Shown: one piece after another, positions 2,613 to 20,000 of the stretch
How the letters are laid out: every line of letters begins with the position of its first letter
How positions within the stretch are numbered: position 1 is the first letter of the stretch
DNA from: an uncultured virus (IMG/VR IMGVR_UViG_3300026522_001173)
Lineage: Duplodnaviria > Heunggongvirae > Uroviricota > Caudoviricetes
Length of the DNA stretch: 20,000 bases
Strand: one strand, 5' to 3'
IMG/VR virus record: IMGVR_UViG_3300026522_001173
Notes under the pieces: model-generated
The model's database searches: none
Seen by the model: the letters and a program-made list of their open reading frames with translations, nothing else
Told to the model about the DNA's origin: nothing
Made by a program: the position numbers and the translations under genes

Positions 2613-2613
2613 T

Positions 2614-3039
2614 TTATATCCGTATGGGATCCTCCGGCAGCGTCACATGGTTCAGCGCCGAGTTATGCCAGCGGTATACGGTCGTGCGGTCAGCATTCAA
2701 TTCATCCCCGATCTGTTCCCAGGTCATGTTGTGGATATAACGGTAGCGGAGAACCATCTGCTCATCCGCATTGGATGCCGTTGCGATTACCTCCCGCATC
2801 TGTGCCTTGAGGTCAATGAGCCGGTCGATTTCAGAATTGATCTTCTGCTCCAGGTCCCAGACCTTCTCAAGGCACCGCACAAAGGGCGCTTCCGTCGGAC
2901 GGTTCGGATTATGCCGTTCCTCCAGGCTTGGGGAGGAGACGCTTCCCGCCATATCGCGCAGACGCTCCATTTCCTCGATGTCGGAATTGATCCTGTGGTC
3001 GAGGCGGTACGCCTGTCTGAGGTATTCTTTCGATGTCAT
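2614..3039 (-). CDS. RinA/ArpU-like late transcriptional activator (DUF1492 / sigma region-4-like HTH)
   Basis: MTSKEYLRQAYRLDHRI...VLRYRYIHNMTWEQIGDELNADRTTVYRWHNSAL. Typical position between SNF2 helicase and HNH. Confidence 0.8.
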   Translation of the reverse strand: MTSKEYLRQAYRLDHRINSDIEEMERLRDMAGSVSSPSLEERHNPNRPTEAPFVRCLEKVWDLEQKINSEIDRLIDLKAQMREVIATASNADEQMVLRYRYIHNMTWEQIGDELNADRTTVYRWHNSALNHVTLPEDPIRI

Positions 3040-3254
3040 AATTCTTCCTCCTGTAATTTTCGCAGCAGCGCCTCACCGTCGATATCTGTGAGCGCCGCGA
3101 ACCAGTCGGAACGGAAGAATGCCTCACAATCCGTTATCATGAGCTTCGCGTCTTCGTTCTTCGGCCGTTTTTTTTGTTTTTTCCTCGCCTCGCGGTAATC
3201 CTTTACGGCTTGCAGGACGATCGCGTTTGCGAGGTTTTCCCAGGGGTCGGTCAT
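3036..3254 (-). CDS. Phage hypothetical protein (72 aa)
   Basis: LANAIVLQAVKDYR...FFRSDWF pattern. ATGA overlaps with both neighbours. Confidence 0.75.
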   Translation of the reverse strand: MTDPWENLANAIVLQAVKDYREARKKQKKRPKNEDAKLMITDCEAFFRSDWFAALTDIDGEALLRKLQEEEL

Positions 3255-4603: not shown

Positions 4604-4865
4604 TGAGTACCTCCTCGATCTGTTCTGTTCCGTCCACGCAGAAGACTCTGAAGCCGAGACTTTCCAATTGCCTCTTCCGTCTTACCTGCAGTGGACGCAT
4701 TGTTTTGCCGGGGCTTTTCAGTTCCACAAACCCGGCACAGCCTCCGGGGAAGAGAACGATACGGTCCGGCACTCCGTCAAAGCCGGGAGATACAAACTTC
4801 AGCGCGATTCCTCCCATGTTTTTCGCCGTTTTTACGAGTTTTCTCTCGATATACTTTTCATTCAC
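4584..4865 (-). CDS. VRR-NUC domain nuclease
   Basis: EKYIERKLV...GGIALKFVSPGFDGVPDRIVL...FVELKSPG...RPLQ. Probable GTG start at 4865 after GGGAG; the ORF track start at 4958 overlaps the upstream gene. Confidence 0.88.
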   Translation of the reverse strand: MNEKYIERKLVKTAKNMGGIALKFVSPGFDGVPDRIVLFPGGCAGFVELKSPGKTMRPLQVRRKRQLESLGFRVFCVDGTEQIEEVLNAIRTP

Positions 4866-5061
4866 TGTATTTCTCCCAGACCTGCCCCGGATCGAACCAG
4901 AGCCATATTTTCTCTCCATCACCATTGTCCACCTCCACTGTTTTGATGCCCTCTTCACGCTTCATGCGTCTGACGGCGTATTTTGACAGTCCCTGTTTCT
5001 GGCAGATATCCTGCACTTTCCGGCAGTCCATAAATTCGCTGCCCACGATTTCTCTGATCAT
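4858..5061 (-). CDS. Small hypothetical protein (67 aa)
   Basis: RBS GGAGGT before ATG; co-oriented with and overlapping the VRR-NUC start. Confidence 0.65.
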   Translation of the reverse strand: MIREIVGSEFMDCRKVQDICQKQGLSKYAVRRMKREEGIKTVEVDNGDGEKIWLWFDPGQVWEKYSE

Positions 5062-5082
5062 TTCAATTACCTCCGCTCGAAT

Positions 5083-5292
5083 GGAACAACAGCCGCAAAA
5101 TTTCCTTACGCGCGCAAAAATGCGTGCCGTGATACGGTTTTTCTTTATATTTTTGTTTTGTTTTGTACTATATAGAAAAAGATGTTCCGTTGTTCCGAAT
5201 TGCTCCGTTTCTGCCTGTATTCAATAGGTTTTACGGTGGAACAGCCACAACCGTCCTGTTCCGTTTGTTCAGTTGTTCCACCGCCTTGTTCC
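5083..5292. repeat. Putative phage replication origin: TGTTCC/GGAACA iteron cluster plus AT-rich tract
   Basis: TGTTCC at 5183, 5191, 5257, 5274 and 5287; inverted copies (GGAACA) at 5083 and 5238; near-copies at 5201 and 5266; AT-rich stretch ~5138-5180. Directly downstream of the primase/helicase stop. Confidence 0.65.
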
Positions 5293-5294
5293 AC

Positions 5295-7625
5295 TTATTT
5301 GCGCTGATAGACTCGCTGCTTTCCGTAGATGGGGAGTCTCACCGATCTTGTCGTCCGCTCCCACTCTCCGAACCTTGTCATGATGGATGCGATAGCATAG
5401 CTGTCAGAAGGCCTGATGTCCTCCTTCGCCTTGCCAAAGCACTCACACCATATCTCAATATTGGTGACCGTTTCGCGGCGTACCGTCCCTTTTACATTGA
5501 GGGGACCGTCCGGGTCCTGAACATACTCACGGCGCTGATAGACGTCCATCGTATCCCAGGTTTCCGGCAGGAGCATATCAAGGTAACGGGCAACAAGCCC
5601 CTCGCGGTCATCCCGCTCCATTGCCTCGGACTGTTCCTTTTTGGCAAACTCCTCCAGTTCGTAGCTTAAGAACAGGTCCTCTCCGGCATCGGCAAGGACG
5701 ATGACCTCCGCCCAGATCTGGTCGACTGTCTCCTGCGTAAGATCCCAGGGTTTCATCCTGCCTGTACCCGGAACACGCACGTTCCAGAATCTGCGGTTGC
5801 CGGTGATATCACGCAGGTAGCCGTTCTCGCTGTTGGTGGTTCCGAAGAAGATGCACTGCCTCGGATGGGGAGTGACCCTTCTGCCGAAGGAGGCGCGGTA
5901 CTTGTCATCGCAGCGGGACACGAAGGCTTTGACCTTCTCAAGGTCGGCTTTTCGCATGCCTGCCATTTCACCGATCTCGTGGATCCAGTAGCCCTGGAGT
6001 TTCTCCGCCGCCGTCTTGTCGTTCATGTCCGAAAGCGTCAGGCTGTCCGCAAACCACTCCATGCCGAGTTTGGCGATCAGCGTACTCTTGCCGATGCCCT
6101 GTTCGCCGTTCAGCACGGTAATGTAATCGAACTTGATGCCGGGATGGTAGATACGCATATAGGCGGCGCAGAGCGCCTTGCGTGTCACCGCCCGGACATA
6201 CTCATTGTCCTGTGCGCCGAGATAGTCAATCAGCACCGTATCCACTCTCGGTATCTCATCCCAGACAGGCAGTGACTCGAAATACTCTTTGATGGGATGA
6301 TAGGAACGGTCATCGGCGGCTTTGGTCACGGCGATGTCGTAGTTCCTCGCCGAAAAGCTGCCATAGCAGGCATCGATATAGCAGATAAGCTGCGCATCGT
6401 CCGCATCCCGCCAGAACTTCGCCGGATGTTTCCAAGGAACCTCTCCGCAGATCTCCATGCCGTCCGCCAGCTGATTAAAGCGGATGTTTTTCATGTACAA
6501 GTCGTTTTCCATGATCAGGCGGATGTTATGAAGGGAGTTTTCCAGGACGCCGTTCTTGTTGCGCTGCAGTTTCTTCTTCCAGTCATCGTCCCCGGCATCG
6601 GCAAAATCCGTCTCCGCCTCCGCAAGCCTCTCGTTCGCCGCCGCGACCTTCACCTCATCCTGCTGCATGGCAAAATCGCACATCGCGCGGAAGGACGCCT
6701 TGTCATCCAAATCGCCGAACTTATGAATGCGGACGATATCAAAGGCGTTGCAGAGATGAAGATATGCCGGGTCTTTTGCATGGTGGGAATATACGAATTT
6801 ATCATCCTTGATCTCCACGCCCGCCATGCTGTGTGACTCGATCAGATGCCAGCGGTTTTCGTTGTCCGTAGGCTCATACACATCCGAAAGAAATACCTCA
6901 AGTGCACGGGTAACGGGGAAGAAGACCCTGTTGAACAGACCGACCGTTCCGTCCTTCGTCAGCGGATCCTGCACTTTCTGCTGTGCGGTCGTATTTGCCT
7001 TGCTCTCACGGGAAGAGGTCGGCAGCCTTGTCGGATCCGTCCATTCCGGATGCGTGGACAGAATATCGTCAGGGTTCAGCCAGCCGCCGTCCGTTTCCTT
7101 ATACACGAATACGCCGTTTTGCGGAGAGGACGGCCAGTACATCAGCTGATTGGGCTGATAGCTGCATTCATCAAAAAAATCGATACCAAGCATCTGCGCC
7201 AGATACCTGGACACCGCCACGAATTCCTCTGGACTCAAATCCCGTGTCAGCGGGAATACAAGCCTTGCCCTCGGATTCTCGTCCGTATGGCTGTGCGTGG
7301 TATAAAGCGCGGATGTATACGGGCAGAGGGTTTCATAGTTATCCAGGAACTCCTTTGTGATACGGTCGCCGTCCAGAGCGATCATGGAACGTTTCTCCAC
7401 GGTCTCGACCTTTCGGCGACCGCCGATCAGGACGCCCGCGACAAAACCTCCGTGGTCTTTCGCAGCGTCCCTCTGTGCCTTTGACATCTTTGCGTATTCT
7501 TCAGCGGACTCCGTAGTTCGTATGGTCACCTTGAGCCGCTCCTTCAGATCATCAAACCGTATGGTCTTGTTGACCCATTTCTTTGCCTGACGGTTGTTGC
7601 CGTAGGCGATAGCAAGATCCCTCAT
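5295..7625 (-). CDS. VapE-family primase/helicase (N-terminal prim-pol-like domain, C-terminal P-loop helicase)
   Basis: Walker A GEQGIGKST, Walker B-like IHEIGEM, FFGTTN, LRDITGNRRFW. N-terminal ALDGD...YTTHSH...PRARLVFPL is AEP-like. Confidence 0.88.
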   Translation of the reverse strand: MRDLAIAYGNNRQAKKWVNKTIRFDDLKERLKVTIRTTESAEEYAKMSKAQRDAAKDHGGFVAGVLIGGRRKVETVEKRSMIALDGDRITKEFLDNYETLCPYTSALYTTHSHTDENPRARLVFPLTRDLSPEEFVAVSRYLAQMLGIDFFDECSYQPNQLMYWPSSPQNGVFVYKETDGGWLNPDDILSTHPEWTDPTRLPTSSRESKANTTAQQKVQDPLTKDGTVGLFNRVFFPVTRALEVFLSDVYEPTDNENRWHLIESHSMAGVEIKDDKFVYSHHAKDPAYLHLCNAFDIVRIHKFGDLDDKASFRAMCDFAMQQDEVKVAAANERLAEAETDFADAGDDDWKKKLQRNKNGVLENSLHNIRLIMENDLYMKNIRFNQLADGMEICGEVPWKHPAKFWRDADDAQLICYIDACYGSFSARNYDIAVTKAADDRSYHPIKEYFESLPVWDEIPRVDTVLIDYLGAQDNEYVRAVTRKALCAAYMRIYHPGIKFDYITVLNGEQGIGKSTLIAKLGMEWFADSLTLSDMNDKTAAEKLQGYWIHEIGEMAGMRKADLEKVKAFVSRCDDKYRASFGRRVTPHPRQCIFFGTTNSENGYLRDITGNRRFWNVRVPGTGRMKPWDLTQETVDQIWAEVIVLADAGEDLFLSYELEEFAKKEQSEAMERDDREGLVARYLDMLLPETWDTMDVYQRREYVQDPDGPLNVKGTVRRETVTNIEIWCECFGKAKEDIRPSDSYAIASIMTRFGEWERTTRSVRLPIYGKQRVYQRK

Positions 7626-8248
7626 TATCTGTACCTCCTTGCTCCGGGTGTTTCTCCATGTTCAAACCGCGCCTGCCGTGCTGTGCGGTATGCACGCTCA
7701 GTTGCAGAAGAATTCATGCTCCATATATAGCTGCTGTCATCACCGAACAGATTAAATACACCGTGCTTATCCACACCGGGATAGGCGCCGAAATAATCGC
7801 CGTCTATGGTCTCAAAATTGTAGTAATTCGGCCATTCCTTGTGGTCGTTATATGCTTCATCATGAAGATGATTCAGGATATCCATCATGTTATCGCCTTC
7901 CGGTATATTGCCTACAACAAGGACAGCCGACCTTGAAACGCCAATATCAAACTCTCCCTTATATCCCATTTGGTAAAACCGTTTGATTTTTTCAGAATCC
8001 GCATCATTCATCCTGCCCTTTACCTCAACATAAATATCACATCCTTTTCTGAAACATCCATGATTAACAGTTACCCCATGCAACAAGAAGTCGGGCAGAT
8101 AATAAAGTCCGTCACCAAGGTCATATCCCTCCGGCTCATACTCCCAGTCCACACCGCAGGCATCGAAAAATACAGCCCAACGAGCCTCAAGACGGGAGCG
8201 AAAAAGGTATCCTTTATACTCCGTCTGTATCGCTTTCAGTTCACTCAT
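7625..8248 (-). CDS. Putative PD-(D/E)XK nuclease-family phage protein
   Basis: FRSRLEARWAVFFD...WEYEPEGY...YLPDFLL...YVEVKG gives a PD...ExK pattern. Overlaps both neighbours. Confidence 0.7.
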   Translation of the reverse strand: MSELKAIQTEYKGYLFRSRLEARWAVFFDACGVDWEYEPEGYDLGDGLYYLPDFLLHGVTVNHGCFRKGCDIYVEVKGRMNDADSEKIKRFYQMGYKGEFDIGVSRSAVLVVGNIPEGDNMMDILNHLHDEAYNDHKEWPNYYNFETIDGDYFGAYPGVDKHGVFNLFGDDSSYIWSMNSSATERAYRTARQARFEHGETPGARRYR

Positions 8249-8604
8249 AACGACTCCACCTCCTGAAACTTGCTGTTGAAATATCGAATCATTTGTCTTC
8301 GTTTCTTCGCTACCTCAATCTCCGTTCGCATTCCGGCGGAAACGGTATCGCCGAATACCCACAATTCGCTGCACTTGCCAAGGAGAACGATATCCATAAA
8401 CAGTGCCAACTCACGTTCTGCGGGATCATCCTCATTTACGAACTGGGGAAACATCAGATGCGGAGCAAGGGGTATCTGTCCCTTCTCCAAAGCGAACCTG
8501 CAGCACTTACGCGCCTTTTCTGTATTGCTTGGTACATCGCCGGATAGTGGGCTGCAAATGTAAACGAGCGGCCTGTATGTCCGGTCTTTCGGTTTGTTTG
8601 ACAT
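8245..8604 (-). CDS. DUF4406-like / nucleoside 2-deoxyribosyltransferase-fold phage protein
   Basis: LVYICSPLSGD...PLAPHLMFPQF...LLGKCSELWVFG..VSAGM..EIEVA. RBS AAGGAGG. Confidence 0.75.
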   Translation of the reverse strand: MSNKPKDRTYRPLVYICSPLSGDVPSNTEKARKCCRFALEKGQIPLAPHLMFPQFVNEDDPAERELALFMDIVLLGKCSELWVFGDTVSAGMRTEIEVAKKRRQMIRYFNSKFQEVESL

Positions 8605-8660
8605 ATCAACTGCCTCCTTATAAAAAGATTTGCCGAGGCTAAGCCTCTAATACCCTCAGT

Positions 8661-8789
8661 GTTTCAGGCGACCAGCCTCTCATCAATATCGAGGAAATGA
8701 GCGTCAGAAGCGACGACGATATCCGGAAGATTTCTCAGCAGCTCAATACTCTTCTGACTGCCGGACGCAGGGCGAAAGGACTGGTGTAA
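8661..8789 (+). pseudogene. 3' remnant of a tape-measure-protein-like gene
   Basis: Frame reads VSGDQPLINIEEMSVRSDDDIRKISQQLNTLLTAGRRAKGLV* and ends 1 nt before the Dit ATG, the usual TMP C-terminus context. In-frame TAA at 8640-8642 upstream and no RBS-backed start. Confidence 0.7.
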
Positions 8790-8790
8790 C

Positions 8791-9570
8791 ATGGGATTTT
8801 CATTTAACGGAACAACCTCCCAGTCTATGGGACTTGCGACAAGAATTACAAACGAATACCGTATGCCGGATCTTAGAAACAACACGATCACCATGCCCGG
8901 ACGGCACGGTGTATTTGATTTTGGAGAAACGGTATCTGAGCGAAAGATACTGATTTCCTGCTTCATTCCTCCGGGAAAGACAGACGAGCAGTTTCTTTCA
9001 AAGAAGGACGCTATTATTGAATGGCTGAATCCGGATAACGGCCTCTGCCAGCTCATTCTGGACAAGGAACCGGGACGAGTGTATGAAGCAAGGCTTACGT
9101 CCGGATTCTCCTTTGACCGGGCAGTCCGTAATTCCTGCACCTTCGATTTGGAATTTTTCTGCCCAGACCCTTATGGCTATGCCATATCAGACGAGACCTT
9201 TGATTTTGCGGAAACCGGAACCTTTACTGCGTCTCGCGCTCTTGGGAATATCGAGTCCTACCCGGTCTACTCCTTAACGGGTGTAATTCCTTCCGGGACG
9301 GACTCGTATATCTCCATAACCACAAACGGCAGTGAGCTTCAGATCATTGGACGGCTTGCCGCCGGAGAAACATTGATTATTGACTCCGATCTGATGACAG
9401 CAAAAGTAGTTGATTCTAATGGAGAAACCCTCCGAAACGGTCTCCCGCTTTTGTCTGAGCTGAATTTCCCGGTCTTAAATACGGGAGATAATACCATCGT
9501 GATTGCTGTGGTCGGTACGAGTACAACATTTACGGAACTGAACATTCAAGCCAGAAGCCGCTGGAGGTGA
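8791..9570 (+). CDS. Distal tail protein (Dit, Siphoviridae tail component)
   Basis: MGFSFNG..S..MGL, 'ITMPGRHGVFDFG', 'LILDKEPGRVYEAR', 'FFCPDPYGY', 'FPVLNTGDNTI' and a C-terminal RWR. Confidence 0.85.
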   Translation: MGFSFNGTTSQSMGLATRITNEYRMPDLRNNTITMPGRHGVFDFGETVSERKILISCFIPPGKTDEQFLSKKDAIIEWLNPDNGLCQLILDKEPGRVYEARLTSGFSFDRAVRNSCTFDLEFFCPDPYGYAISDETFDFAETGTFTASRALGNIESYPVYSLTGVIPSGTDSYISITTNGSELQIIGRLAAGETLIIDSDLMTAKVVDSNGETLRNGLPLLSELNFPVLNTGDNTIVIAVVGTSTTFTELNIQARSRWR

Positions 9571-9576
9571 TATTGC

Positions 9577-12099
9577 ATGGCTCTTAAAAATATATTGAAT
9601 ACCCAAGATGCCTTCACCGGCGAGTTTCCGGCTGCATGGGCTCCAGACGGTCTCTGGCGCTTTAACGAGTCCGAACCGGATGCAGATGATTATCTGGCGG
9701 ATTCCTCCGGGAAGGATCGCAAGGCATATATTCATAACTGGAGCGGAACAACCGCAGATATGAAAACAGGCAATTTCGGTCGCTATTTTCAGATGAACAT
9801 CAATAATCCTTCATCGGAGAAAACCTACCTGAAAGTAGAAAACGACGGCAGCATCTTCTCAAACCTCGGTGAAACCATCGTGGTCGGCGGCTGGATGAAG
9901 CCTACGACATATTCAGTCGGCAACACCTATACTCCGATCTTGAATACCCGCTACGGTTCCGGGCAGCCGATTTTCTATCTGTCGCTGATCAGAGGAAAAC
10001 CGAGGATTATGCTGTATAGCTCCTCCGGTTCTCTGATCCTCGATACGTCTGTAACGCCATCATTCTCTTTGCTAAACGGCTACTGGTATTTTATCGCATG
10101 CGTGATTAAGCCAAATGCCAAGACAGCGCAATACATCCTTGGCGATAAGAGCTCCGGCACGATTTGGCAGTCAAGTGTGCTGACCTTTACCGGAGAGCTG
10201 AACCGTAGCTGCGTGGCTGACCTCATCTGGGGAATGCACGCGGACTCCTACTGGTACGCAGGCGGCTTTGATGACTGGTTCCTCGACTGCGATTCTGATC
10301 TAACCGCCGATGACCTTGCAGAATATTTTCTGGAATCGCTCTCCGCAAACGGTGCAGATCTGACCGGTGATGTGGACGCTCTGACGACACCGGATGTCGT
10401 TACACTTCGAGCTACAGACTCTGTCTATCCGTCAAGCGGACAGCTCATTACTGCAGCAAGGGACTGTGGCGTGACTGGAAACGGCAGAGTTTCTGTGAAG
10501 GCGGATTACTCTCCGGGAGAAACCTCTATCTCGCTTGTGGAAACAGCCACCTCGGACGACCTAACCACTTGGACAGAGTGGCAGGCTGTCGGTGCAAACG
10601 GCGAGCTGGAATCTCCTGCAAAGAAATATATTAAATACCGCGTCACGCTCTCTACCACAAATACAGCAAGGACGCCTACGCTGACATCTATCAGCCTGTA
10701 CGATAATCCAAAGCCGCTCTATACCAAACTTGGCTATGCAAGACCGGTCATTCTGGACTCAGACGGGAATGTGGAAGCCGTGCTGGATAACGCCTATGAC
10801 ATCATTGTGACCAGTGAGATCAACGGCGTGGATGAGCTGGAATTTAAGCTGCCGTTTCAGGACAGCAAACGCGCCTATATCGATAACGAAAAGACCGTGC
10901 GTATTGTCAGCGACACCTATCGCATCCGCACGATTACGGACGACAAGGAAGAAAGCGGCAAGGCCATCACCACGGTCTATGCGGAAGCGGCATTCTATGA
11001 TCTTGCCTACTCCGTGAAAAAGGACGAGATTACCTTTAACGCAGACGCGGCTGATGTGCCGATGGCTTATGCCCTGCAGGGTACCGACTGGGATGTGGGC
11101 ACGGTTAATGTCTCCACAAAGCGTACTTGGACTTGCTCTGAGAAAAACGCGCTGGCGATTCTACGTGCAGTACAGAACATTCACGGCGGCGACCTGATTT
11201 TTGATAACGCAAACAGGATTGTGAAGCTCCTAACCTTCTCCGGTGAGGATTCCGGCGTACTGTTCTGCTACAAGAAAAATATGAAATCCATCCAACGCGT
11301 CATTGATACGACCAGCCTGATTACAAGGCTTTACGCCTATGGCAAGGACGGCATGACCTTTGCTTCGATCAATGGCGGCAACGAATATGTGCAGGACACG
11401 ACCTATACTTCCGAAATACGAATTGCTACGCTGGATTGCTCGAACTTCACCAATCCATATCAGATGCTGGAATATGCCAACATGCGACTTGCAGACTATG
11501 CCTCTCCGCGTATCTCCTATGTGCTAAAGGCGATGGATCTGTCAGTATTGACCGGCTATGAACATGAAACATGGGCGCTGGGCGATACGGTCATGGTGAA
11601 GGATGATGACCTGAACCTGTCTGTAAAGACCAGAATCGTCCGCAGGGAATACAACCTGCAGGAGCCTTGGAATACGGTGCTGGAGCTTTCCACTACCCTC
11701 CGGGAGCTGGGCGATTCCTCCTCACGCTGGGATAGCGCAGCCGATACGCTGGAGTCTACCGATCTGATAGACAGTCAGGAAATGAAGGATCTGGTGCCGT
11801 TTAATCACCTGCGTAATTCCAGAGCAGATTCCGGTCTTACCTACTGGCAAAACTCCGGATTTACCGTGGATGCAGATAATGGCGTATCCGGCACGGCTTC
11901 CTTCAAATGCGAAGGTGCGCTGAATACCACAAAGAGTCTTTCACAGACCATAACGCCCGCCAACCGGCAGTGCTATACCTTTTCGGCGCAGATTGCCTCT
12001 GAGAATCTCTCAAAAGGTACGAATGGACAGGTGGGCATTGAGGTGACCTTTGAATACGAGGATGGAACAACGGAAACACGATTTATAGACCTGATCTGA
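9577..12099 (+). CDS. Phage minor tail/baseplate protein: N-terminal LamG/ConA-like domain, Tal-like core, C-terminal partial CBM-like domain
   Basis: 'GLWRFNE', 'GGWMKPT' and 'WYFIACV' are LamG-like. 'EINGVDELEFKLP', 'KNMKSIQRVIDTTSLITRLYAYGKDG' and 'LGDTVMVKDDDLNLSVKTRIV' fit a prophage tail protein. Follows Dit. Confidence 0.85.
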   Translation: MALKNILNTQDAFTGEFPAAWAPDGLWRFNESEPDADDYLADSSGKDRKAYIHNWSGTTADMKTGNFGRYFQMNINNPSSEKTYLKVENDGSIFSNLGETIVVGGWMKPTTYSVGNTYTPILNTRYGSGQPIFYLSLIRGKPRIMLYSSSGSLILDTSVTPSFSLLNGYWYFIACVIKPNAKTAQYILGDKSSGTIWQSSVLTFTGELNRSCVADLIWGMHADSYWYAGGFDDWFLDCDSDLTADDLAEYFLESLSANGADLTGDVDALTTPDVVTLRATDSVYPSSGQLITAARDCGVTGNGRVSVKADYSPGETSISLVETATSDDLTTWTEWQAVGANGELESPAKKYIKYRVTLSTTNTARTPTLTSISLYDNPKPLYTKLGYARPVILDSDGNVEAVLDNAYDIIVTSEINGVDELEFKLPFQDSKRAYIDNEKTVRIVSDTYRIRTITDDKEESGKAITTVYAEAAFYDLAYSVKKDEITFNADAADVPMAYALQGTDWDVGTVNVSTKRTWTCSEKNALAILRAVQNIHGGDLIFDNANRIVKLLTFSGEDSGVLFCYKKNMKSIQRVIDTTSLITRLYAYGKDGMTFASINGGNEYVQDTTYTSEIRIATLDCSNFTNPYQMLEYANMRLADYASPRISYVLKAMDLSVLTGYEHETWALGDTVMVKDDDLNLSVKTRIVRREYNLQEPWNTVLELSTTLRELGDSSSRWDSAADTLESTDLIDSQEMKDLVPFNHLRNSRADSGLTYWQNSGFTVDADNGVSGTASFKCEGALNTTKSLSQTITPANRQCYTFSAQIASENLSKGTNGQVGIEVTFEYEDGTTETRFIDLI

Positions 12100-12112
12100 A
12101 GGAGGAATTTCT

Positions 12113-12304
12113 ATGGCTTCATTTACACACGTGGCACAGGATGTCTCTCCTCAGTATGGCCGCGTCACAAAGATCACCATCCGGGTATGCGTGACCGACT
12201 GCACCGGAACTGTATATATCACAGATATGCTCCTGCAGGGCGGCTCCATCGCCACCGGCTGGGTAGGCCATGTATCAGAAATTCAATGGACGGAGGACGG
12301 ATAA
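12113..12304 (+). CDS. Small tail-associated protein (63 aa), half beta-sandwich-like
   Basis: RBS AAGGAGG; similar to the N-terminus of the next gene. Confidence 0.75.
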   Translation: MASFTHVAQDVSPQYGRVTKITIRVCVTDCTGTVYITDMLLQGGSIATGWVGHVSEIQWTEDG

Positions 12305-12883
12305 ATGCCGGAGTTTACACGCTTTACAGAGACAATAACAAAAAAGCAGGATAAGCGCGTCGTAAACATTACGGTAAAGCCAACCGTCATAGATTGCACC
12401 GGTTCGGTCTGGTTTACCGACCTGATACTGCAGGAAGGCGATAAAGTCACAGGCTTTGTCATCAACACCGAAACACTTCTGGAAAAATATGATGGCGATG
12501 ATGCGAAAGCAGGCAAGAGATTTTATAACGGCATCGTCCGTTCTGCTGCGACCTGCATTATCTACAATCTCGGCTCCACTGCTGCCGGTCTTGACTACAA
12601 GGTCTATCCGATTCAGGCGATGGCTGCCGGGAGTATATCGCTTGCGCTGGGTGAAGGTGCTCATAAGGCAACTTTCAAAGCGGCAGCGGCTGCCGGTGAT
12701 GAATTTGACCTTTTCGCTTCTACGAGGGAGTGCCTGAAGAACGGCGCTGCAACAGCCAAGGACGGCTTTTTCCAATACTCTGCTGCCGGTGACAGCAAGC
12801 ACCCAATCACAGTCGAGGATAAAAAATCGGCTCGAATCTATGTAGAATTTCAGGAAATGCAGGACGGAGGTGATGCCCTGTGA
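12305..12883 (+). CDS. Tail-associated hypothetical protein (192 aa)
   Basis: RBS GGAGG; starts directly after the upstream TAA; GTGA overlap with the GH18 gene. Confidence 0.75.
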   Translation: MPEFTRFTETITKKQDKRVVNITVKPTVIDCTGSVWFTDLILQEGDKVTGFVINTETLLEKYDGDDAKAGKRFYNGIVRSAATCIIYNLGSTAAGLDYKVYPIQAMAAGSISLALGEGAHKATFKAAAAAGDEFDLFASTRECLKNGAATAKDGFFQYSAAGDSKHPITVEDKKSARIYVEFQEMQDGGDAL

Positions 12884-14652
12884 GCTATGATTATTTGAAA
12901 GGCCGCAAGTGCATGGTCTGGACATTCATGGGCAATTCCAGAATGTATCAGGCACTTGCCGCATATGGAGACCGCCTGTCACAGGTGGGTCTCTTTTCTT
13001 TTAAGGTATCGCGCACCGGTATCATCACGGAAAGCGGCGTGGCTATTTCCAACATGCTGACCTACATAAACCGATGGCCGCACATCAAATGGCTCCTGAC
13101 GATATCCAACGATGGCACGAACAGTATCTTTGCAGCTCTCCGTGATAACACCGACGGCGCTCAGGATACTTTCCTTTCGGAGATCGTCCGCATTATGGAA
13201 AAATACCCGTGGTGCGACGGCATCGACATTGACCTTGAGAAAGGCGACGGATATTCCACGCACGCTGCTTCTACGGCGATGTTTCGGAATATCTATAACA
13301 CAGTAAAAGGATATGACAGCAGCAAGCTCATGAACATATGCCTGCCGGGTATGAATTCCATCAACGGCTCGGTCGGAGGTGAAAACTGGTGCGTTTACGG
13401 CGATCTCAACGCTTACTGTGATACGGCGGCCATCATGAGCTATGGCATGGCGTGGGCGGGCTCTGCTCCCGGAGCCGTCTCTCCAAGGGACTGGCTGGAG
13501 GGCATTTACGACTACGCGGTCACGGTCATGAATCCGGAGAAGATATTCTTCGGCCTTCCCGCATACGGCTGGAACTGGCAGATTTATGACCTTCCTGCAA
13601 ACCTTGGTAAAACCTATCGCGGCACATCAAATACCTACTATGCGGCAAAGAACTGGATGACCGGGCAATACAACTTCACGGACGATGCTCCACCGCAGCC
13701 CTTCATCCCGATCCTCGCATACTGGGACGATTATGACATGGTACCTTGGGCGCTTCCACAGGTCTACGACTTCATGGAAGGCAGGGACGCCACAAGCTAT
13801 GAGTATCCTTTGATGAACGGAACCTATAACAGGCGGCATTACCTGACCGCTTACAGCAAAGAGCAACACACAGAGTTCGGCACCATTTATGTGGATGCGG
13901 ATGGAACGACAAGCTCCTACTCCGGCATCGTATCCTTTGAAAACGGCGTGGCCACTCTCGGTGATGCTGGCTCTGCCACATATACCTTTTCCGTATCAAG
14001 CGCCGGAACCTACGACATCGCCATCCGCCTCTGTTATCCCTTCTGGGATAAAAACGGCATCTATGTTTCGATTGACGGCAACACGACGCATTTTACGGAA
14101 AGCAGGCTCTGGTGGCCATATTGGAGAAGCACCTTCTGGACGACGCTCGCCAGCAACATTTCACTATCTGCCGGGACGCACACCATCGTGATATCCGTAG
14201 ATGTAAAAGGCGTACAGTTTTACGGCTACCGTGTTTGCAGCAGCTTTTCGGAGGCTCCCTCTGCAGGCAGCGCGACCTTTACACTCTCTCCACGCCACTT
14301 TATCGACGTGGACGGCAACGAGTGTCAGCCGGATAGAGCCTTCAAGCTCACCTGTGAAATGCTGAGGCGAAAGCCAGACTCTGCCCTCATCTGGTATGAG
14401 GATTTCCGGGACTATGGTGTGCTGCAAACAAACTACTGGACGACGCTTTCAGGCTCTTGGACGGTATGGCGTGAAGATGAATATTCCGAAAGTCGCGTTT
14501 ACTCTCATCTTGACGGCTCCGGAAAGCTCGCATGGCAATACGATGGTTTTTCCGATATTCACCTGCGGGCGGCTTGTCCGGGTCAAGTCCAAAATCATGC
14601 GCCAGCTTTTTCGCCGCCTCATAGCTGCCCAGGCCAAACAAACGGGCGGTGA
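12880..14652 (+). CDS. Tail-associated glycoside hydrolase family 18, C-terminally truncated at ~14570 with a non-native tail
   Basis: Intact DxDxE motif (CDGIDIDLE), IMSYG, KIFFGLPAYGWNW, then a CBM-like segment. After FSDIHLRA the frame runs into the antisense strand of the CHC2 gene. Confidence 0.85.
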   Translation: MSYDYLKGRKCMVWTFMGNSRMYQALAAYGDRLSQVGLFSFKVSRTGIITESGVAISNMLTYINRWPHIKWLLTISNDGTNSIFAALRDNTDGAQDTFLSEIVRIMEKYPWCDGIDIDLEKGDGYSTHAASTAMFRNIYNTVKGYDSSKLMNICLPGMNSINGSVGGENWCVYGDLNAYCDTAAIMSYGMAWAGSAPGAVSPRDWLEGIYDYAVTVMNPEKIFFGLPAYGWNWQIYDLPANLGKTYRGTSNTYYAAKNWMTGQYNFTDDAPPQPFIPILAYWDDYDMVPWALPQVYDFMEGRDATSYEYPLMNGTYNRRHYLTAYSKEQHTEFGTIYVDADGTTSSYSGIVSFENGVATLGDAGSATYTFSVSSAGTYDIAIRLCYPFWDKNGIYVSIDGNTTHFTESRLWWPYWRSTFWTTLASNISLSAGTHTIVISVDVKGVQFYGYRVCSSFSEAPSAGSATFTLSPRHFIDVDGNECQPDRAFKLTCEMLRRKPDSALIWYEDFRDYGVLQTNYWTTLSGSWTVWREDEYSESRVYSHLDGSGKLAWQYDGFSDIHLRAACPGQVQNHAPAFSPPHSCPGQTNGR

Positions 14653-14839
14653 ACTCAATCACATCGCCGTGAGCCCCGCAGCCAAAGCAGTAGAAATAAT
14701 CCTTGTTCAGTTTCATGCTGGGGTGCCGGTCATCGTGGAACGGACAGCGGCACATCCCATTCCGCTGCACCTCCACTCCGTAGTGTTCGGCAGCCTGCGG
14801 GACGGTCACGTTTGCCTTTACAAATTCGTAGATACTCAT
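14564..14839 (-). pseudogene. Truncated CHC2 zinc-finger (DnaG-type zinc-binding domain) protein of an integrative mobilisable element
   Basis: MSIYEFVK...CRCPFHDDRHPSMKL...FYCFGCGAHGDVIEF...EAAKKLAHDFGLDPDKPPA, with RBS AAGGAGG. The frame continues to 14387 only as antisense of the GH18 gene. Confidence 0.8.
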
Positions 14840-14925
14840 GTGTTTTCCTCCTTGATTTTTCGTACAGGTTTTCCCTGTCACTTCAATGTACGGAGAAAAA
14901 GGGGCCATCCCGAAAAATCCGTCAG

Positions 14926-15066: not shown

Positions 15067-15255
15067 ATGAAATACCTTTCTACCTTTGAAGCAGCAGAGA
15101 AATGGGGGGTATCGCCCCGGCGTGTCGGCGTTCTCTGTAATGAAAACCGCATCCCTGGCGCACAGCGAGCAGGCTGCCGCTGGATCATCCCGGAAAATGC
15201 GGAAAAGCCAAAAGACGCCCGCATCAAAAGCGGGAAATACATCAAGAAAAACTGA
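15067..15255 (+). CDS. Small HTH DNA-binding protein (excisionase/HTH_17-like)
   Basis: MKYLSTFEAAEKWGVSPRRVGVLCNENRIPGAQRAG..WIIP; RBS AGGA. Confidence 0.85.
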   Translation: MKYLSTFEAAEKWGVSPRRVGVLCNENRIPGAQRAGCRWIIPENAEKPKDARIKSGKYIKKN

Positions 15256-15269
15256 GAGGGGGCTTGGAT

Positions 15270-16106
15270 ATGGAGCAGCGGTATCTTCCCAGCACGCCGC
15301 AGCAGCGGTTGCAGGACTTGATGAAGGAACATAAAATTACGCAAGCGGTTCTGGCCAAGAAAATCGGAGTTACCGAAAGCACTCTGAGCCGTTTTATCAA
15401 CGGTACAAAGGATACGCTCAGCCTGGATCAGATGATTAGCATTGCCCGCATCTTCAATGTTTCTACCGATTTTCTCCTGTGCATGACTGATGTCCCTGAC
15501 CGGAAAAACTATGACATTTCCGAGCTGGGATTGTCCGCTGAAGCGGCACGGAACCTTTATACCGGCAGAACCAATCCGCAGGTGGTAAGCCGTCTGCTGG
15601 AAAACCGCCGCTTCGCCCAGCTTACCAATATGATTGCGCTGTATTTTGATGATACCCTTGCCTCTGGTTTTGCGGTGCAGAATCAGATAGTTCAAACGCT
15701 CAGTTCCATGCTGTTGGGAACAGGAAAAGAACAGCCTGATGCCAGGAAAGCGGCCCAGCAAGCAGCACAGACTGCATTACTGAATAAGGTGCCCGTCTAT
15801 CAGGCAGACCTGACCAATATCCAAAATCAGTTTATGGCTGTTTTGCGGGAGATCAAAAAAGAAATCGGCACGGAAACAGGGGAGCCGCTGACCAAAGAAA
15901 TGGTGGAACAGATGTATTCGGAAACGATGAAAGGGCAGGATGCACTGCATCCATCTGTTTCGCCGGAACAGTTTGTGGATCTGATTATTGCCAGTGTCTC
16001 CGGGATGGAGCTTGCCGATGCCGATTCTCTGGGGGAAGTGCGGCAGGCACTGCTTCACATGGTACAGCGGATGGCGGAACAGGATCATGAAGCCAAAAAC
16101 AAATGA
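15270..16106 (+). CDS. XRE-family HTH transcriptional regulator with extended C-terminal domain
   Basis: RLQDLMKEHKITQAVLAKKIGVTESTLSRFING...IARIFNVSTDFLL. ATG 15270 fits the GAGGGGG RBS spacing better than TTG 15264. Confidence 0.88.
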   Translation: MEQRYLPSTPQQRLQDLMKEHKITQAVLAKKIGVTESTLSRFINGTKDTLSLDQMISIARIFNVSTDFLLCMTDVPDRKNYDISELGLSAEAARNLYTGRTNPQVVSRLLENRRFAQLTNMIALYFDDTLASGFAVQNQIVQTLSSMLLGTGKEQPDARKAAQQAAQTALLNKVPVYQADLTNIQNQFMAVLREIKKEIGTETGEPLTKEMVEQMYSETMKGQDALHPSVSPEQFVDLIIASVSGMELADADSLGEVRQALLHMVQRMAEQDHEAKNK

Positions 16107-16749
16107 GCAGCTCTGCGTACTGGCACAGCGAGGGGATGCACAGGCGCAGGAGCAGCTGGTAAAAAACAATCTGGGATACATACAAAAGGTTGCAAATGAA
16201 CTGTATCAAAGCGTAGGGCTGGGCAACAGTGAGCTTGGCATCGACCACGATGATCTGATTCAGGAGGGAAGCATCGGCCTTTTACGGGCTATCTCCCTGT
16301 ACGACCCTGACAAGAAAATAAAGTTCTTGACCTATGCCGGACAAGCCATCCGCAACGCCATGATGGATTTGATTTCCGCCGCCTTTGCCACCTTTGAGCA
16401 GCGGCTGCAATCAAAAGAGGATGGCTTTCCTATGGAACGGATCAATCTGGATGATCTGCTCCCCGGCGAGGACTCCATGCAGCGTTCCGAGCTGATCGCT
16501 GATCCGTATGCCGCTGAGCCAGAGAAGATCCTGATTGAAGAAGAAAACCGGCGGGAGCTGTACGAGGGACTGAGACGCATTCCCGCAAGAGACAGGGCAT
16601 ACCTCCTGTACCGATTTGGCTTTGAGGACGATCTGGAACACCCTCTGATTGGGACGGCGTTGCATTTCCATCTCAGTGAAAGTCGGGCAAAGTCAACCGA
16701 GGCTCTGGCGCTGGACAATCTATGGCTGGAACTGCCGTGGTGGTTTTAA
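16087..16749 (+). CDS. Sigma-70 family RNA polymerase sigma factor
   Basis: Region 2: AQRGDAQAQEQLVKNNL...DDLIQEGSIGLLRAISLYDPDKKIKFLTYAGQAIRNAM; divergent region 4. ATG 16087 overlaps the end of the XRE gene. Confidence 0.85.
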   Translation: MKPKTNEQLCVLAQRGDAQAQEQLVKNNLGYIQKVANELYQSVGLGNSELGIDHDDLIQEGSIGLLRAISLYDPDKKIKFLTYAGQAIRNAMMDLISAAFATFEQRLQSKEDGFPMERINLDDLLPGEDSMQRSELIADPYAAEPEKILIEEENRRELYEGLRRIPARDRAYLLYRFGFEDDLEHPLIGTALHFHLSESRAKSTEALALDNLWLELPWWF

Positions 16750-16806
16750 CGATAGATGCTGTGGCAGGACGGGGGCTTTTGATATACCTTTGTTCCGCTG
16801 CTGACC

Positions 16807-16850
16807 GGCTGGAAAAAGCTGCTTTCTGCACCTTCTTCCAGCCTTTTCCT
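16807..16850 (+). terminator. Possible intrinsic terminator of the HTH-XRE-sigma operon
   Basis: GGCTGGAA...TTCCAGCC stem followed by TTTTCCT; the loop is long. Confidence 0.45.
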
Positions 16851-16955
16851 GTTGCTCAGACTGCCCCATTTATAGGGCAACCTTTCCCACCAGAACGCCG
16901 GAATTGCAGCACAGATTCAAGGGTGTGCTACATTTCCGGCTGCCATCCGCTCTAC

Positions 16956-16980
16956 AAAGGTATAACACACTAGACTTTCC
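16956..16980 (-). other. MOBV-family origin of transfer (RSA / pMV158-type oriT)
   Basis: Minus strand GGAAAGTCTAGTGTGTTATACCTTT closely matches the pMV158 nic region (AAAGTATAGTGTG^TTATACTTT) and the RSA core (AAGTCTAGTGTGTTAGACTT) as I recall them. Predicted nic between 16966 and 16965. Confidence 0.75.
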
Positions 16981-17130
16981 TGCGGAAAATTGTGTGCCAA
17001 CAGGGATGCTGCTCGCCCCTATTGGAAACCCAGAGCCAAGGGGCTGCGCCCCTCTGGACACCCTTCATATTTTCCTCGAAAATGGTACCCAAACTGTAAA
17101 AATGCAGTTTGACACCATTCCTCAGGAAAT

Positions 17131-17185
17131 ATAAAACCGCTGCATATTCCATCCTGCTCGGGGATGAAAATTGCAGCGGTTTTAT
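17131..17185 (-). terminator. Strong hairpin terminator after the helicase-HNH operon (possibly bidirectional)
   Basis: ATAAAACCGCTGCA...TGCAGCGGTTTTAT is a perfect 14-bp inverted repeat with an inner CATCC/GGATG stem, abutting the stop codon at 17185-17187. Confidence 0.8.
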
Positions 17186-17718
17186 CATACTACTCGAAAT
17201 GTCAGCATCTGATCCAAATCGGCATCTTCGATAGAGCATGGCACGCCACCACGCAACGTCGCTCCCAGATGATAGAACAGCATACATCGGTTTATGTGTT
17301 GAAGCAACAACTGAGACCTTCGTTTATAGCCATACTGCTTGAGCAGGGTTCTCAGCTTAATTCTAACATAATCATTTCCATATCCATACAAAATACGGAT
17401 GCGGATGCTTTTGAAAAACAAATCCAAATCCGAGAAATCGCTGGTTAATTGGTCTGCTTGCAAAGTCCTGTTTGAATACGCCAAATCTTTCTGTATTGCA
17501 GGAAATTCTTTATCGATCACTGGTTTATCATAGAAATATTGTAACCAATGATAGGTGTCTAAAATGAATTTCCGCTGATTTGCTCTGTATGGAATATCGA
17601 GAAATGCTTTCTCGCCCTCCCATATCCGGTCAAGTATTCTGCTTTCATCTCGACAGCCGAGCTGCATACTGCTGACAATTACCGCAATATCGAGTGCAGA
17701 GTAGCATAACCCTTGCAT
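17185..17718 (-). CDS. Hypothetical protein (177 aa), partner of the helicase-HNH
   Basis: TAATG overlap with the upstream stop, followed by a terminator. Basic C-terminal segment YVRIKLRTLLKQYGYKRRS. Confidence 0.8.
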   Translation of the reverse strand: MQGLCYSALDIAVIVSSMQLGCRDESRILDRIWEGEKAFLDIPYRANQRKFILDTYHWLQYFYDKPVIDKEFPAIQKDLAYSNRTLQADQLTSDFSDLDLFFKSIRIRILYGYGNDYVRIKLRTLLKQYGYKRRSQLLLQHINRCMLFYHLGATLRGGVPCSIEDADLDQMLTFRVV

Positions 17719-20000
17719 TACTGATCACCTTTCGTTCCGTTGCACTGACGACAGAGAATTTGCAAATTTTCTACAACGCTTTTGCCGCCGTTGTTCATCG
17801 GAACGATATGATCGACTTGGAAATAGATACGTGACTTGTCTGCAACACCACAGCAAGCGCACCGGTAATTTCCATCTGCATCTTTAGCTTTTTCAAAAGC
17901 CTGATCTCTCAATTCCTTTTCCAAAGCAGGATTGATTTTCCCAATTTCATGCAAAGGCAAATCTTCTAATGCTCTGGTTCCATACTTTATGTTGTTTTCA
18001 TCATCGTATATATCGGGATGCGATAGTTTCATCAATTCGATGTTCAGCTGACGGAGGAAATAAAGTTTCCTACCAAAAAACAGGCGAAGCATATTATCAT
18101 CACTGGATTCCCAGAGCGAATCAATATACTCTGTTCTTTTGCGTTCGCCCATATCTTCGTCCCAAATATGCTGGGCAATTTTGCTAACATCAAGTTTGCT
18201 TCTGTCTACCTCAGCGAAAGTATAGAACTGCGGAACGGCTTCATATTGGGCATAATATTTCAGGATATTCAGAACATCCTTCCGTTCATAAGGAGGAATC
18301 ATCTCTCCGCAAAAGAACGAATCCCGGCACTGTGCTTCCATTTCATCAAGCTGCGCTTCTGTCAAATATTCTTCTGTTGCACCAAAAGACTTGAACAGGG
18401 AAGGAAGCGCATCCATCAAATTTTTATAGGCATTCTGTGTGCTGTCGTAGACCATTACCTGATAAGCGTGATCCATTCCGTTTTCTTCAAGATATGTAAA
18501 CGCATACATACCAACAGGGATTCTTTGCTCAAATGGCACTTTTTCCAACGCAGTAGTATCAACTGCATCATCCAAAATAGCTGCAAACTCCTCAATCTTG
18601 GAAATAGCAATCATGCGCAGATCTCGTTTGGCACGCTCAGATTCATTATCCTGAAAGTCATTGTTTCCATCAAATAGGCTTTCCGGATTAACCCATGCAA
18701 TATGCTCGTTCCAGTGGTCTACGAACGAAACAATATATGCGCTGGCTGTGCCGCCTGCTGCTGTACCACGCAATGCACGACCAACCATCTGCGTCATCAA
18801 AATGGAAGAAACAGTAGGTCTTGCCAAAAACACTGTTTTAGTTTTGGGCAAATCAACGCCCTCAGTCAAAATGTTGACATTGATCAAAACCTGCAACTTT
18901 CCATTTCGATAGTCTTCCAGCTTTCTTTCGTTATCCTCCCGGCTAATCGTCACACCAGTAATGGCATCCTTAACAGAAGATACGATGAAGTCAGCTTTGA
19001 TACCAGCTTTTTTGAAAAGAGAGGTCAACTGAATTGCATGAACCACATTAACGGCAAACAATATTGTCTGACCATAGTCATTCTGTTTTGCCTTATAAGT
19101 TTCGACAATCAGTTTGTTACGGGCTGCACTATCTGCCATCTGCTGTGCAACCTCATCCGGCAAAACATCCAAATGTTGAATGCTTTCCCATGCGTCAACA
19201 CCGAGAGAATCGCCGTATTCTTCATCCGTGTAAAAGCTTTCAAAAATAGGTTTTGCAAGAATCTGTCTGTTAATCAGTTCCTTTAGTCCGATCTGATATG
19301 TGATTCCAACATCACCGTGAACAACTCGTCCATCACTGATACCGTCAGTATATATTTTTGCTAACAGTCCCTGTTCTTCTTCAGCAGTACGGAACGGAGT
19401 AGCAGTTAAACCAATCAGTTTTAAATTAGGAACCTTTGCCTTTACATAATCAATGACCTTTCTGTACGTTTTTGCGGTTGAATGATGAGCTTCATCCACA
19501 ATCAAATACAGCTCTTTTTCACCTTTGAGCCATTGATCCAATCGATCAATGTTTCTTCCGATGCTGTCCTTGCTGACAATCAGCAAGTTGTCACCCGGAC
19601 GAATGTCGCTGGTTCGGTCATGGCTGGAAGCTCCAGAAACAATTCTAAAGCAGAAGGAAGAAATGTGGGGGACAACTTCTGTATAAGCAAACTTTTGAAA
19701 AGACTCAGCAGCCTGATCCAGCAACATCTGGCGATGGGCAATCCAAAGAATTTTCTTTCTCTTATCAATAGCATTTTTTAAGAGCCACATGGAAGCAGTA
19801 TATGTCTTACCACCACCAGTAGGAAGAACTACCAGTGTGCTGTATGATGCCTCCTGATTCATCTTATCCAATGCTTCCATTGCCTTCTTCTGATGCTCGT
19901 AAGGCGTTCTGGTATTTGTTCCTTTTTTGGGAAAAATATCACCAAAGGATTTTACTTCTACATAATTTGTAAAGTTTTGTTTGTCTAATTCATTCATCAT
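17718..20000 (-). CDS. SF2 (ResIII/DEAH-type) helicase fused to a C-terminal HNH endonuclease
   Basis: LPTGGGKT, IVDEAHH, LTATP, LTEGVD and QMVGRALR; C-terminal CACCG...QVDHIVPMNNGGKSVVENLQILCRQCN. The start lies at the window edge, so RBS and any N-terminal extension cannot be seen. Confidence 0.9.
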   Translation of the reverse strand: MMNELDKQNFTNYVEVKSFGDIFPKKGTNTRTPYEHQKKAMEALDKMNQEASYSTLVVLPTGGGKTYTASMWLLKNAIDKRKKILWIAHRQMLLDQAAESFQKFAYTEVVPHISSFCFRIVSGASSHDRTSDIRPGDNLLIVSKDSIGRNIDRLDQWLKGEKELYLIVDEAHHSTAKTYRKVIDYVKAKVPNLKLIGLTATPFRTAEEEQGLLAKIYTDGISDGRVVHGDVGITYQIGLKELINRQILAKPIFESFYTDEEYGDSLGVDAWESIQHLDVLPDEVAQQMADSAARNKLIVETYKAKQNDYGQTILFAVNVVHAIQLTSLFKKAGIKADFIVSSVKDAITGVTISREDNERKLEDYRNGKLQVLINVNILTEGVDLPKTKTVFLARPTVSSILMTQMVGRALRGTAAGGTASAYIVSFVDHWNEHIAWVNPESLFDGNNDFQDNESERAKRDLRMIAISKIEEFAAILDDAVDTTALEKVPFEQRIPVGMYAFTYLEENGMDHAYQVMVYDSTQNAYKNLMDALPSLFKSFGATEEYLTEAQLDEMEAQCRDSFFCGEMIPPYERKDVLNILKYYAQYEAVPQFYTFAEVDRSKLDVSKIAQHIWDEDMGERKRTEYIDSLWESSDDNMLRLFFGRKLYFLRQLNIELMKLSHPDIYDDENNIKYGTRALEDLPLHEIGKINPALEKELRDQAFEKAKDADGNYRCACCGVADKSRIYFQVDHIVPMNNGGKSVVENLQILCRQCNGTKGDQ

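Follow-up and report, generated by a model that had tools for sequence, protein, structure and literature searches.

What would a helicase–nuclease fusion and a small protein outside every known family do side by side at the end of a stretch of viral DNA, and has such a pair already been described under another name? The stretch of DNA considered here, called the window below at its full length of 20,000 nucleotides (nt), is assigned to an uncultured caudoviricete (IMG/VR record IMGVR_UViG_3300026522_001173). It ends in two genes, one encoding a 760-amino-acid (aa) protein with a superfamily 2 (SF2) helicase core and, at its C-terminus, a domain of the HNH nuclease type (P0001), the other a 177-aa partner (P0002). 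A reading of the bare letters, the original prediction, had taken them for a candidate anti-phage system. Our comparative analysis favors that proposal, and we put the probability at roughly 0.6 that the pair is an unnamed, methyltransferase-independent translocase–nuclease defense system. The proposal, which like ours is read from sequence, came through where it was most exposed: the pair is conserved, matches no named system in PADLOC-DB v2.0.0 or in the literature searched, and is not the tail of a larger restriction–modification operon.

First, do the two genes belong together? A genome scan with a P0002 profile, taking one genome per species, returned 44 loci spanning Clostridia (Lawsonibacter, Blautia, Faecousia, Pseudoflavonifractor, Intestinimonas, and others) and Negativicutes (Veillonella, Phascolarctobacterium). 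In 42 of them the stretch directly upstream of the small gene is helicase–HNH sequence, full-length in 37, cut at a contig end in two (L002, L010), and degraded in three (L013, L017, L043); of the two remaining loci, one lacks upstream DNA (L029) and one holds a small-gene remnant only (L044). A second scan, aimed at a distant P0002 clade (~27–30% identity to P0002), added 24 metagenome loci, in 22 of which the helicase–HNH C-terminus (41–57% identity) ends at the small gene; L062 and L068 contain partial small genes only. Among decayed copies, L013 retains residues 262–760 of the large protein and L047 residues 424–760, and in L056–L058 (e.g., L057:2473-3494) a 169-aa HNH-bearing C-terminal open reading frame (ORF) and the small gene are all that survive. 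The helicase–HNH gene and the small gene form a conserved two-gene module. Since two distant helicase–HNH proteins (L070, L071; 32–35% identity) have no same-strand ORF of at least 70 aa directly downstream, the partner marks a subfamily rather than the whole helicase–HNH clade.

Purifying selection on the two genes is strong. Only 4 of 66 locus pairs were usable, the rest being saturated, and in these the ratio of nonsynonymous to synonymous substitution rates (omega) is 0.02–0.04 for the helicase gene and 0.04–0.08 for the small gene, whose nonsynonymous rate is ~2.4 times that of its neighbor. The small protein also diverges faster, to 47% identity versus 71% at the far end of the first locus set. 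The distribution of the pair is sporadic: a Clostridia ortholog was found in 1 of 399 scored genomes, which is the Lawsonibacter genome itself. In metagenomes, near-identical copies of P0001 occur in many assemblies. Many of the contigs that carry them measure only 3.0–3.5 kb, close to the length of the cassette, which would be expected if assembly stops at the cassette edges because the flanks differ between strains.

Second, what kind of enzyme is the large protein? Pfam finds ResIII at residues 33–204 (9.5e-27), DEAD at 35–207, Helicase_C at 300–411, and HNH at 714–760 (2.7e-11, with HNH_5 also matching), and the catalytic motifs are invariant in all 17 homologs compared, at 48–96% identity. 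They comprise the ATPase motifs GxGKT (62–66), DEAHH (169–173), TATP (199–202), and QxxGRAxRG (404–412), which cover helicase motifs I, II, III, and VI, together with C714, C717, D730, H731, N745, C750, C753, and N754 of the HNH domain, whose pattern CxxC...DH...N...CxxCN is likewise kept in 17/17. The helicase–HNH architecture proposed from the letters is borne out, as is the long uncharacterized region in between, for which Pfam gives no match over residues ~430–700. The nearest solved chains by sequence are SauUSI (7clg, 4e-19) and RadD (8e-13), and the best Foldseek matches of the AlphaFold2 model (predicted local distance difference test score, pLDDT, 73.5; predicted template modeling score, pTM, 0.51) are RadD, XPB, SauUSI, Hef, and MDA5-type motors; these belong to the SF2 enzymes of the double-strand translocase type. 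The region between core and HNH domain is acidic (isoelectric point, pI, 4.5) and is modeled as a disordered linker (430–485) followed by a beta-hairpin and helices of moderate confidence (pLDDT 70–90). It might conceal a reader domain; Pfam gave no match to SRA or DUF3427.

Databases of named systems recognize P0001 in parts. PADLOC-DB v2.0.0 matches are confined to the helicase core (mREase_IV, 8e-31 over residues 32–415; PbeA; type I R) or are domain-level matches of the HNH (PtuB, 5.5e-5), and the NCBIfam matches all fall far under their curated cut-offs, the best being RadD (3e-28). The ESM Atlas returns only the proteins' own families, labeled “hypothetical protein” and DEAD/HNH.

Third, the small partner is conserved but anonymous. 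P0002 has no match in Pfam, NCBIfam, PHROGs, or PADLOC v2.0.0, and its family comprises 315 clusters at 50% identity in a library of 1.84 billion proteins, 242 of them at E ≤ 1e-10 (312 relatives among 90% clusters). Nearly all are stand-alone proteins of ~175–180 aa. Of 13 longer relatives scanned, one contains DUF4357, one has a weak YgjP-like match, and the others show nothing; some may be gene-calling fusions, and they give no functional clue. The AlphaFold2 model is confident (pLDDT 89.5, pTM 0.83) and its charge is divided between an acidic helical N-terminal half (pI 5.0) and a basic C-terminal half (pI 9.7), a division repeated in 5/5 distant homologs checked. Its best-conserved stretch is the basic segment K-L-R-x-L-L-x-x-x-G-Y-K-R-R-S.

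Fourth, the surroundings resemble those of defense genes. No DNA methyltransferase adjoins the pair in the window and none is conserved beside it in the loci examined, in line with the original prediction. A non-generic PADLOC match lies within 4 kb of the pair in 20 of 41 loci, counting single-gene hidden Markov model matches rather than called systems, and the anticipated setting in defense islands is found in this sense. The matches include DolA/DolB, type IIG MmeI, UzuA, HEC-05/GmrSD_N, AbiEi/AbiEii, a PsyrT/DpdF-like helicase, and WYL, along with the PADLOC candidates PDC-S05, S14, S41, M34B, and M57. The cassette is horizontally mobile, as its variable neighbors, low GC content, and sporadic spread attest.

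From these features we infer translocation, nuclease activity, complex formation, a role for the partner, and an anti-phage effect, which might fit together as follows. P0001 would load on double-stranded DNA, translocate with ATP, and carry its own effector, the C-terminal HNH domain, which would cut the DNA. P0002, presumably made in step with P0001 via the overlapping stop and start codons, would most likely bind P0001, while its basic, weakly winged-helix-like C-terminal half would contact nucleic acid; it could serve as a sensor or specificity subunit, or as a brake that restrains the nuclease at host DNA and is lifted once foreign DNA or some cue from a phage arrives. Cleavage of the invader's DNA, or abortively of any DNA in the cell, would in turn stop the phage or plasmid. 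As a methyltransferase is lacking, there are two options for avoiding self-damage, which the data do not separate: the system may recognize a foreign feature (modified bases, replication or packaging intermediates), or it may fire on a phage cue only, with an abortive outcome. The modification-dependent or replication-sensing action offered in the original prediction is a guess. That an HNH piece and the small gene are what is left in decayed copies mildly hints at the brake.

Several points weigh against a defense function, or against this version of it. The pair sits behind a serine recombinase in four loci, which also fits a role in the life cycle of the element. P0001 residues 24–639 match phrog_16 “DNA helicase” at 2e-70 (profile positions 262–786 of 986), and the helicase part therefore has relatives in phage replication modules. 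PADLOC-DB v2.0.0 dates from 2023; it has no model that covers the pair, and a system named later may escape it. The neighborhood matches, as noted, concern single genes (E ≤ 1e-8, with 6 of 147 near representatives left out, all housekeeping by Pfam), and the contrast between 24 of 141 neighbor-cluster representatives within 4 kb and 14 of 145 further out is modest and has no genome-wide background rate beside it; because the far flanks are themselves part of these islands (pAgo, BREX, Mokosh-like), we take these counts as context, not as a statistic. For P0002, Foldseek against the Protein Data Bank (PDB) gave nothing at E ≤ 0.001 and the wide VIA-align comparison gave no clear fold (best Z 3.7). 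Residues 95–177 repeatedly align with winged-helix domains (Stn1, RepE, Pi, CtsR, TFIIIC) at Z 3.0–3.5, a weak, model-based likeness that is a lead rather than a finding. Prediction of the P0001–P0002 complex scored 0.41 (runs 0.41, 0.60, and 0.39), the best of three controls scoring 0.00, with runs sharing at least 50% of contacts and a partner pLDDT of at least 71. Among 157 solved complexes 116 reach the mark, as do 2 among 215 mismatched pairs; at 0.60 or below it is reached by only 18 of the 157 and by both passing mismatches, a calibration that makes such “weak” support more often wrong than right unless the complex was likely beforehand. The prediction counts weakly in favor of a complex.

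Could the pair instead be a toxin–antitoxin-like or abortive module? In that case the HNH–helicase would be toxic to its own cell and P0002 chiefly an inhibitor, released or overwhelmed on infection; the difference from selective restriction would lie only in the role of the partner and in the outcome, cell death. The small gene lies downstream of the enzyme gene, is translationally coupled to it, and evolves faster than it, an HNH C-terminal piece and the small gene remain together in the degraded L013, L047, and L056–58, and the weak complex support (0.41 against 0.00) also counts in favor. Classical antitoxins, however, are mostly encoded upstream and autoregulate; Panacea, HTH-Xre, and other antitoxin families were not detected in it by Pfam, PADLOC, or NCBIfam; and the loss of the 5′ part may mean no more than insertions upstream. 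We consider this account unlikely, at perhaps one chance in a handful.

A second alternative, that the pair serves the replication, excision, transfer, or competition of small mobilizable elements rather than host defense, turns on the Lawsonibacter contig L001, with which the window is 99.8% identical over 16954–20000 only. Upstream of the pair L001 carries sigma/helix-turn-helix (HTH) genes, a CHC2 primase, D5/DUF5906, DUF6471, a Mob_Pre relaxase, and a large serine recombinase of 651 aa whose gene ends 17 nt before the helicase gene. These genes form a small integrative mobilizable element with the pair at its end, as its last operon. Its junction at ~10755–10775, equivalent to window position 16954, contains a short direct repeat, TATACCTTTG(T), and is likely an element end or attachment (att) region. 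We also observe that L001:1-14110 consists of two related mobilizable-element modules in tandem, with the HTH–primase–D5 set appearing again after the pair; this second set matches the window, where a sigma/HTH block of 74.5% similarity follows the cassette.

A function within the element would agree with the recombinase gene directly upstream in L001, L004, L008, and L011, with Blautia copies that adjoin MobA/MobL and a Toprim–DnaB primase, and with the phrog_16 match (2e-70). Yet the pair stands without element genes in L021 and L025, between PMT_2 and ilvD, and in ~10 Veillonella loci, and its upstream genes come from many unrelated families; these differences among loci, with the recombinase as the upstream gene in L001, are also what speaks against the tail of a larger restriction–modification operon. 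Relatives of the small protein were not found in viral collections, either: tblastn of P0002 drew a blank in 50,697 phage records, and an IMG/VR pattern scan gave 42 pattern matches and 0 relatives. With P0001 as query, the same phage records matched the helicase core only, at <60% identity, and no record reached 80% coverage of the query; a megablast search of phage and plasmid collections with the cassette returned nothing. A purely element-serving role strikes us as improbable. A housekeeping DNA-repair helicase–nuclease of RadD/XPB type with an accessory factor can be set aside as very improbable, for although RadD is the best NCBIfam match (3e-28) and the leading structural match, its 98 bits fall far short of the cut-off of 720, and an ortholog in 1 of 399 Clostridia genomes, low GC, variable neighborhoods, and a location on mobile elements or in islands do not suit such a role.

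A wider interpretation may also be ventured, which we rate a little below even odds: that the pair represents a new family of methyltransferase-independent restriction-like defense systems, in which a small protein without a clear structural match to any solved chain licenses or aims an SF2 translocase–HNH enzyme, that mobilizable elements and defense islands have spread it among gut and oral Firmicutes, and that the faster evolution of the partner reflects an arms race with phage triggers or inhibitors.

The organization of the locus within the window is given in Table 1.

Table 1. Features of the gene pair and its immediate surroundings, in window coordinates.
Feature	Position	Strand	Basis or remark
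HTH_17 / HTH_3 / sigma-70 block	15067–16749		
Non-coding tail of cassette or element, likely element end or att region	16954–17130	.	identity with L001 ends at 16954
Terminator-like hairpin, then U-rich tail, directly 3′ of the P0002 gene	17131–17185	−	
P0002 partner gene, 177 aa	17185–17718	−	ORF call; outside every known family
TAATG stop/start overlap coupling P0001 and P0002	17716–17720	−	
P0001 gene, helicase–HNH fusion, 760 aa	17718–20000	−	ORF call, Pfam; ATG takes up the final three bases of the window
C-terminal zinc-finger HNH (beta-beta-alpha-Me) nuclease domain, residues 714–760	17721–17861	−	Pfam HNH, HNH_5
Middle region without known family, residues ~430–705	17886–18713	−	no Pfam match; AlphaFold2 model
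Helicase/translocase core, residues ~33–425: ResIII/DEAD lobe, Helicase_C lobe, motifs I, II, III, VI	18726–19904	−	

The details of the operon largely agree with the original prediction. The TAATG overlap is present as described, and overlapping or abutting gene coordinates are seen again in related loci. The closing hairpin is strong (24-nt arms, −32 kcal/mol, z = −5.8, 0 of 200 shuffles folding equally well) and is directly followed by UUUUAUAUUU; a scan for promoter and terminator consensus sequences missed it and found fewer promoter-like sites than in shuffles. The operon is indeed AT-richer, with a GC content of 0.405–0.429 over 17001–20000 against 0.47–0.565 in the remaining window. 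The P0001 gene is complete, because a 100%-identical 760-aa copy in L001 starts at the same ATG, and its promoter region falls beyond the window; what follows position 20000 was read from L001 in its stead. Rfam gave no RNA family match in the window. One claim fell: the origin of transfer (oriT) placed beside the operon has no tool support at 16750–17130, a stretch that holds the end of a mobile element with its junction at 16954. We have dropped it in favor of an element end or att region, which is more likely.

The genes around the pair elsewhere vary. In ~10 Veillonella loci the pair lies between a gene for a TRAM/U5-methyltransferase-type RNA methylase and an opp-type ABC operon, joined variably by GmrSD_N/HEC-05, AbiEi/AbiEii, a PsyrT/DpdF-like helicase, GIY-YIG UzuA-like, and YadA-like genes. 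The Blautia loci L012 and L014 have the order MmeI-type IIG enzyme, DolA, DolB, the pair, a 206-aa protein, MobA/MobL, and Toprim–DnaB, and L005 the order PDC-S41, an mREase_IV-like gene, RhuM/PDC-S05, GIY-YIG-DUF4357/PDC-S14, and the pair. In L003 a HEPN gene (PDC-M34B) lies 139 nt upstream, and in L021 and L025, the latter labeled Bacteroides sp. CAG:545, the pair stands alone between its two flanking genes. Distant-clade neighbors include an SF1 helicase with an MTES_1575 nuclease (REase), JetD-like plus WYL, Panacea, an integrase, and a serine recombinase.

Some of these neighbors recur within clades. In L035, L036, L040, and L043, all with tyrosine integrases nearby, a DUF6884 / PDC-M57A-B fusion lies 25–534 nt upstream of the pair. 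Its product of ~460 aa (L035:6318-7694, L036:3015-4391, L040, L043:6690-8084), whose gene precedes the helicase gene by 25 nt (by 534 nt in L043), matches both PADLOC PDC-M57A and PDC-M57B, and in this Pseudoflavonifractor/Intestinimonas clade the gene may be a clade-specific third gene or an adjoining candidate system. Two further conserved, clade-specific proteins, neither with a Pfam or PADLOC match, are encoded downstream of the small gene: one of 206 aa in L010, L012, L013, L014, and L029 (e.g., L012:9506-10126), and one of 314 aa, on the opposite strand, in L035–L040 (e.g., L040:10547-11491). A distant helicase paralog (L009:8405-10693; 27% identity over residues 35–406) follows ~2 kb downstream in L009, after a DEDDh exonuclease gene. 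Genes for a 322-aa protein and a 666-aa DEAD helicase (PsyrT/DpdF-like, its C-terminus PD-DExK-like according to PADLOC) adjoin the pair in L019 (10890-13658), L020, and L013 (Veillonella, Blautia), and the set has the look of a PsyrTA-like system or some variant thereof.

Elsewhere the window carries phage-like genes. On the minus strand are genes for ParB_N, a protein with S-AdoMet_synt_N only, a small terminase, DUF1492/sigma-r4, an SNF2 helicase, and a VapE primase, and on the plus strand genes for Dit, Tal, and a GH18–CBM35 protein. Over 1–14652 the minus-strand replication and packaging block (VapE, SNF2, DUF1492, terS, ParB) abuts the plus-strand tail genes with no head genes in between, an odd arrangement and possibly a rearranged or composite prophage or satellite. 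Between the ParB_N and small-terminase genes, positions 644–1471 (minus strand) encode a 275-aa protein that matches PF00438 only (the S-adenosylmethionine synthetase N-terminal domain, 1.8e-12) and may represent a phage gene of MetK type, truncated or put to another use. A 173-aa ORF at 14387–14908 (minus strand), with 74.5% DNA homology to the start of the L001 CHC2 primase gene, overlaps the 3′ end of the GH18 gene and is therefore probably a truncated remnant of a second mobilizable element.

Why would such a pair matter? Helicase–nuclease defense proteins are already a known theme, and this two-gene family is absent from Pfam, NCBIfam, and PADLOC v2.0.0, its partner also from PHROGs. It is not rare, with 315 partner clusters and recurrent metagenome copies, and its hosts are human and animal gut and oral anaerobes (Lawsonibacter, Blautia, Veillonella, Phascolarctobacterium), in which few defense systems have been tested. 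If active, the pair would be a compact 2.8-kb system whose sensor or regulator is a small protein without a clear match among solved structures, and it would be part of the reason why phage and plasmid transfer meets barriers in gut and oral communities.

How, finally, does the pair compare with systems that already have names? A full-text literature search, which took in passages of 10.1101/2025.09.30.679545 and PMC12839542, found no description of it, the supplementary tables of defense-discovery papers, which may list the family, lying outside that search. Together with the partial PADLOC matches and the NCBIfam scores below cut-off, this agrees with the original prediction, which could match the gene pair to no named system. 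Septu PtuB and ZorE resemble P0001 at the level of the HNH domain only, and the PtuA ATPase is absent from the window. RadD (NF053632) is matched with 98.3 bits against an equivalog cut-off of 720, and phrog_16, the phage replication helicase, is covered over part of its profile, the partner being absent from phage records, so that neither family takes in P0001.

Hachiman HamAB and Rst_HelicaseDUF2290 are two-gene operons of a helicase and a smaller protein found in defense islands. In our pair, unlike in these, the nuclease is fused to the helicase, and P0002 has no DUF1837, DUF2290, or other Pfam or PADLOC match. The R subunits of type I and III restriction enzymes, which translocate first and cut afterwards and which need Mod or HsdMS, share the ResIII match and would share that order of action with the pair, and EcoAI-type and PRK11448 R-subunit models match the core; in contrast to them, the pair has no HsdM, HsdS, or Mod conserved beside it, scores far under the cut-offs, and carries an HNH rather than a PD-(D/E)XK nuclease. 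It differs also from Hma, which is described as a three-gene Snf2–PD-(D/E)XK system (PMC11232893). Hna, a DinG/XPD-like SF2 protein with a PD-(D/E)XK exonuclease domain that acts alone (PMC13381803), likewise combines SF2 ATPase motifs with a C-terminal nuclease and provides methyltransferase-free, abortive-infection defense, but the core of P0001 is RadD/XPB/SauUSI-like, its nuclease is an HNH, and its partner gene is conserved.

Among solved structures, the closest SF2 motor by sequence is that of SauUSI, a type IV, modification-dependent and ATP-dependent enzyme (7clg; PADLOC mREase_IV, PDLC03659). The core is shared (8e-31 over residues 32–415 for PDLC03659, the best PADLOC match, and 4e-19 for 7clg), and in both proteins a translocase is joined to a nuclease in one polypeptide with no methyltransferase. 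A single SauUSI chain holds a PLD nuclease at its N-terminus and an SRA reader at its C-terminus (PMC12707154), whereas in P0001 the helicase begins at residue ~33, Pfam detects no PLD domain, and the PADLOC alignment starts only at profile position 218 of 945. What sets the pair apart from SauUSI is a nuclease of another kind at the other end of the chain, a C-terminal HNH, and a separate, obligatory partner of 177 aa.

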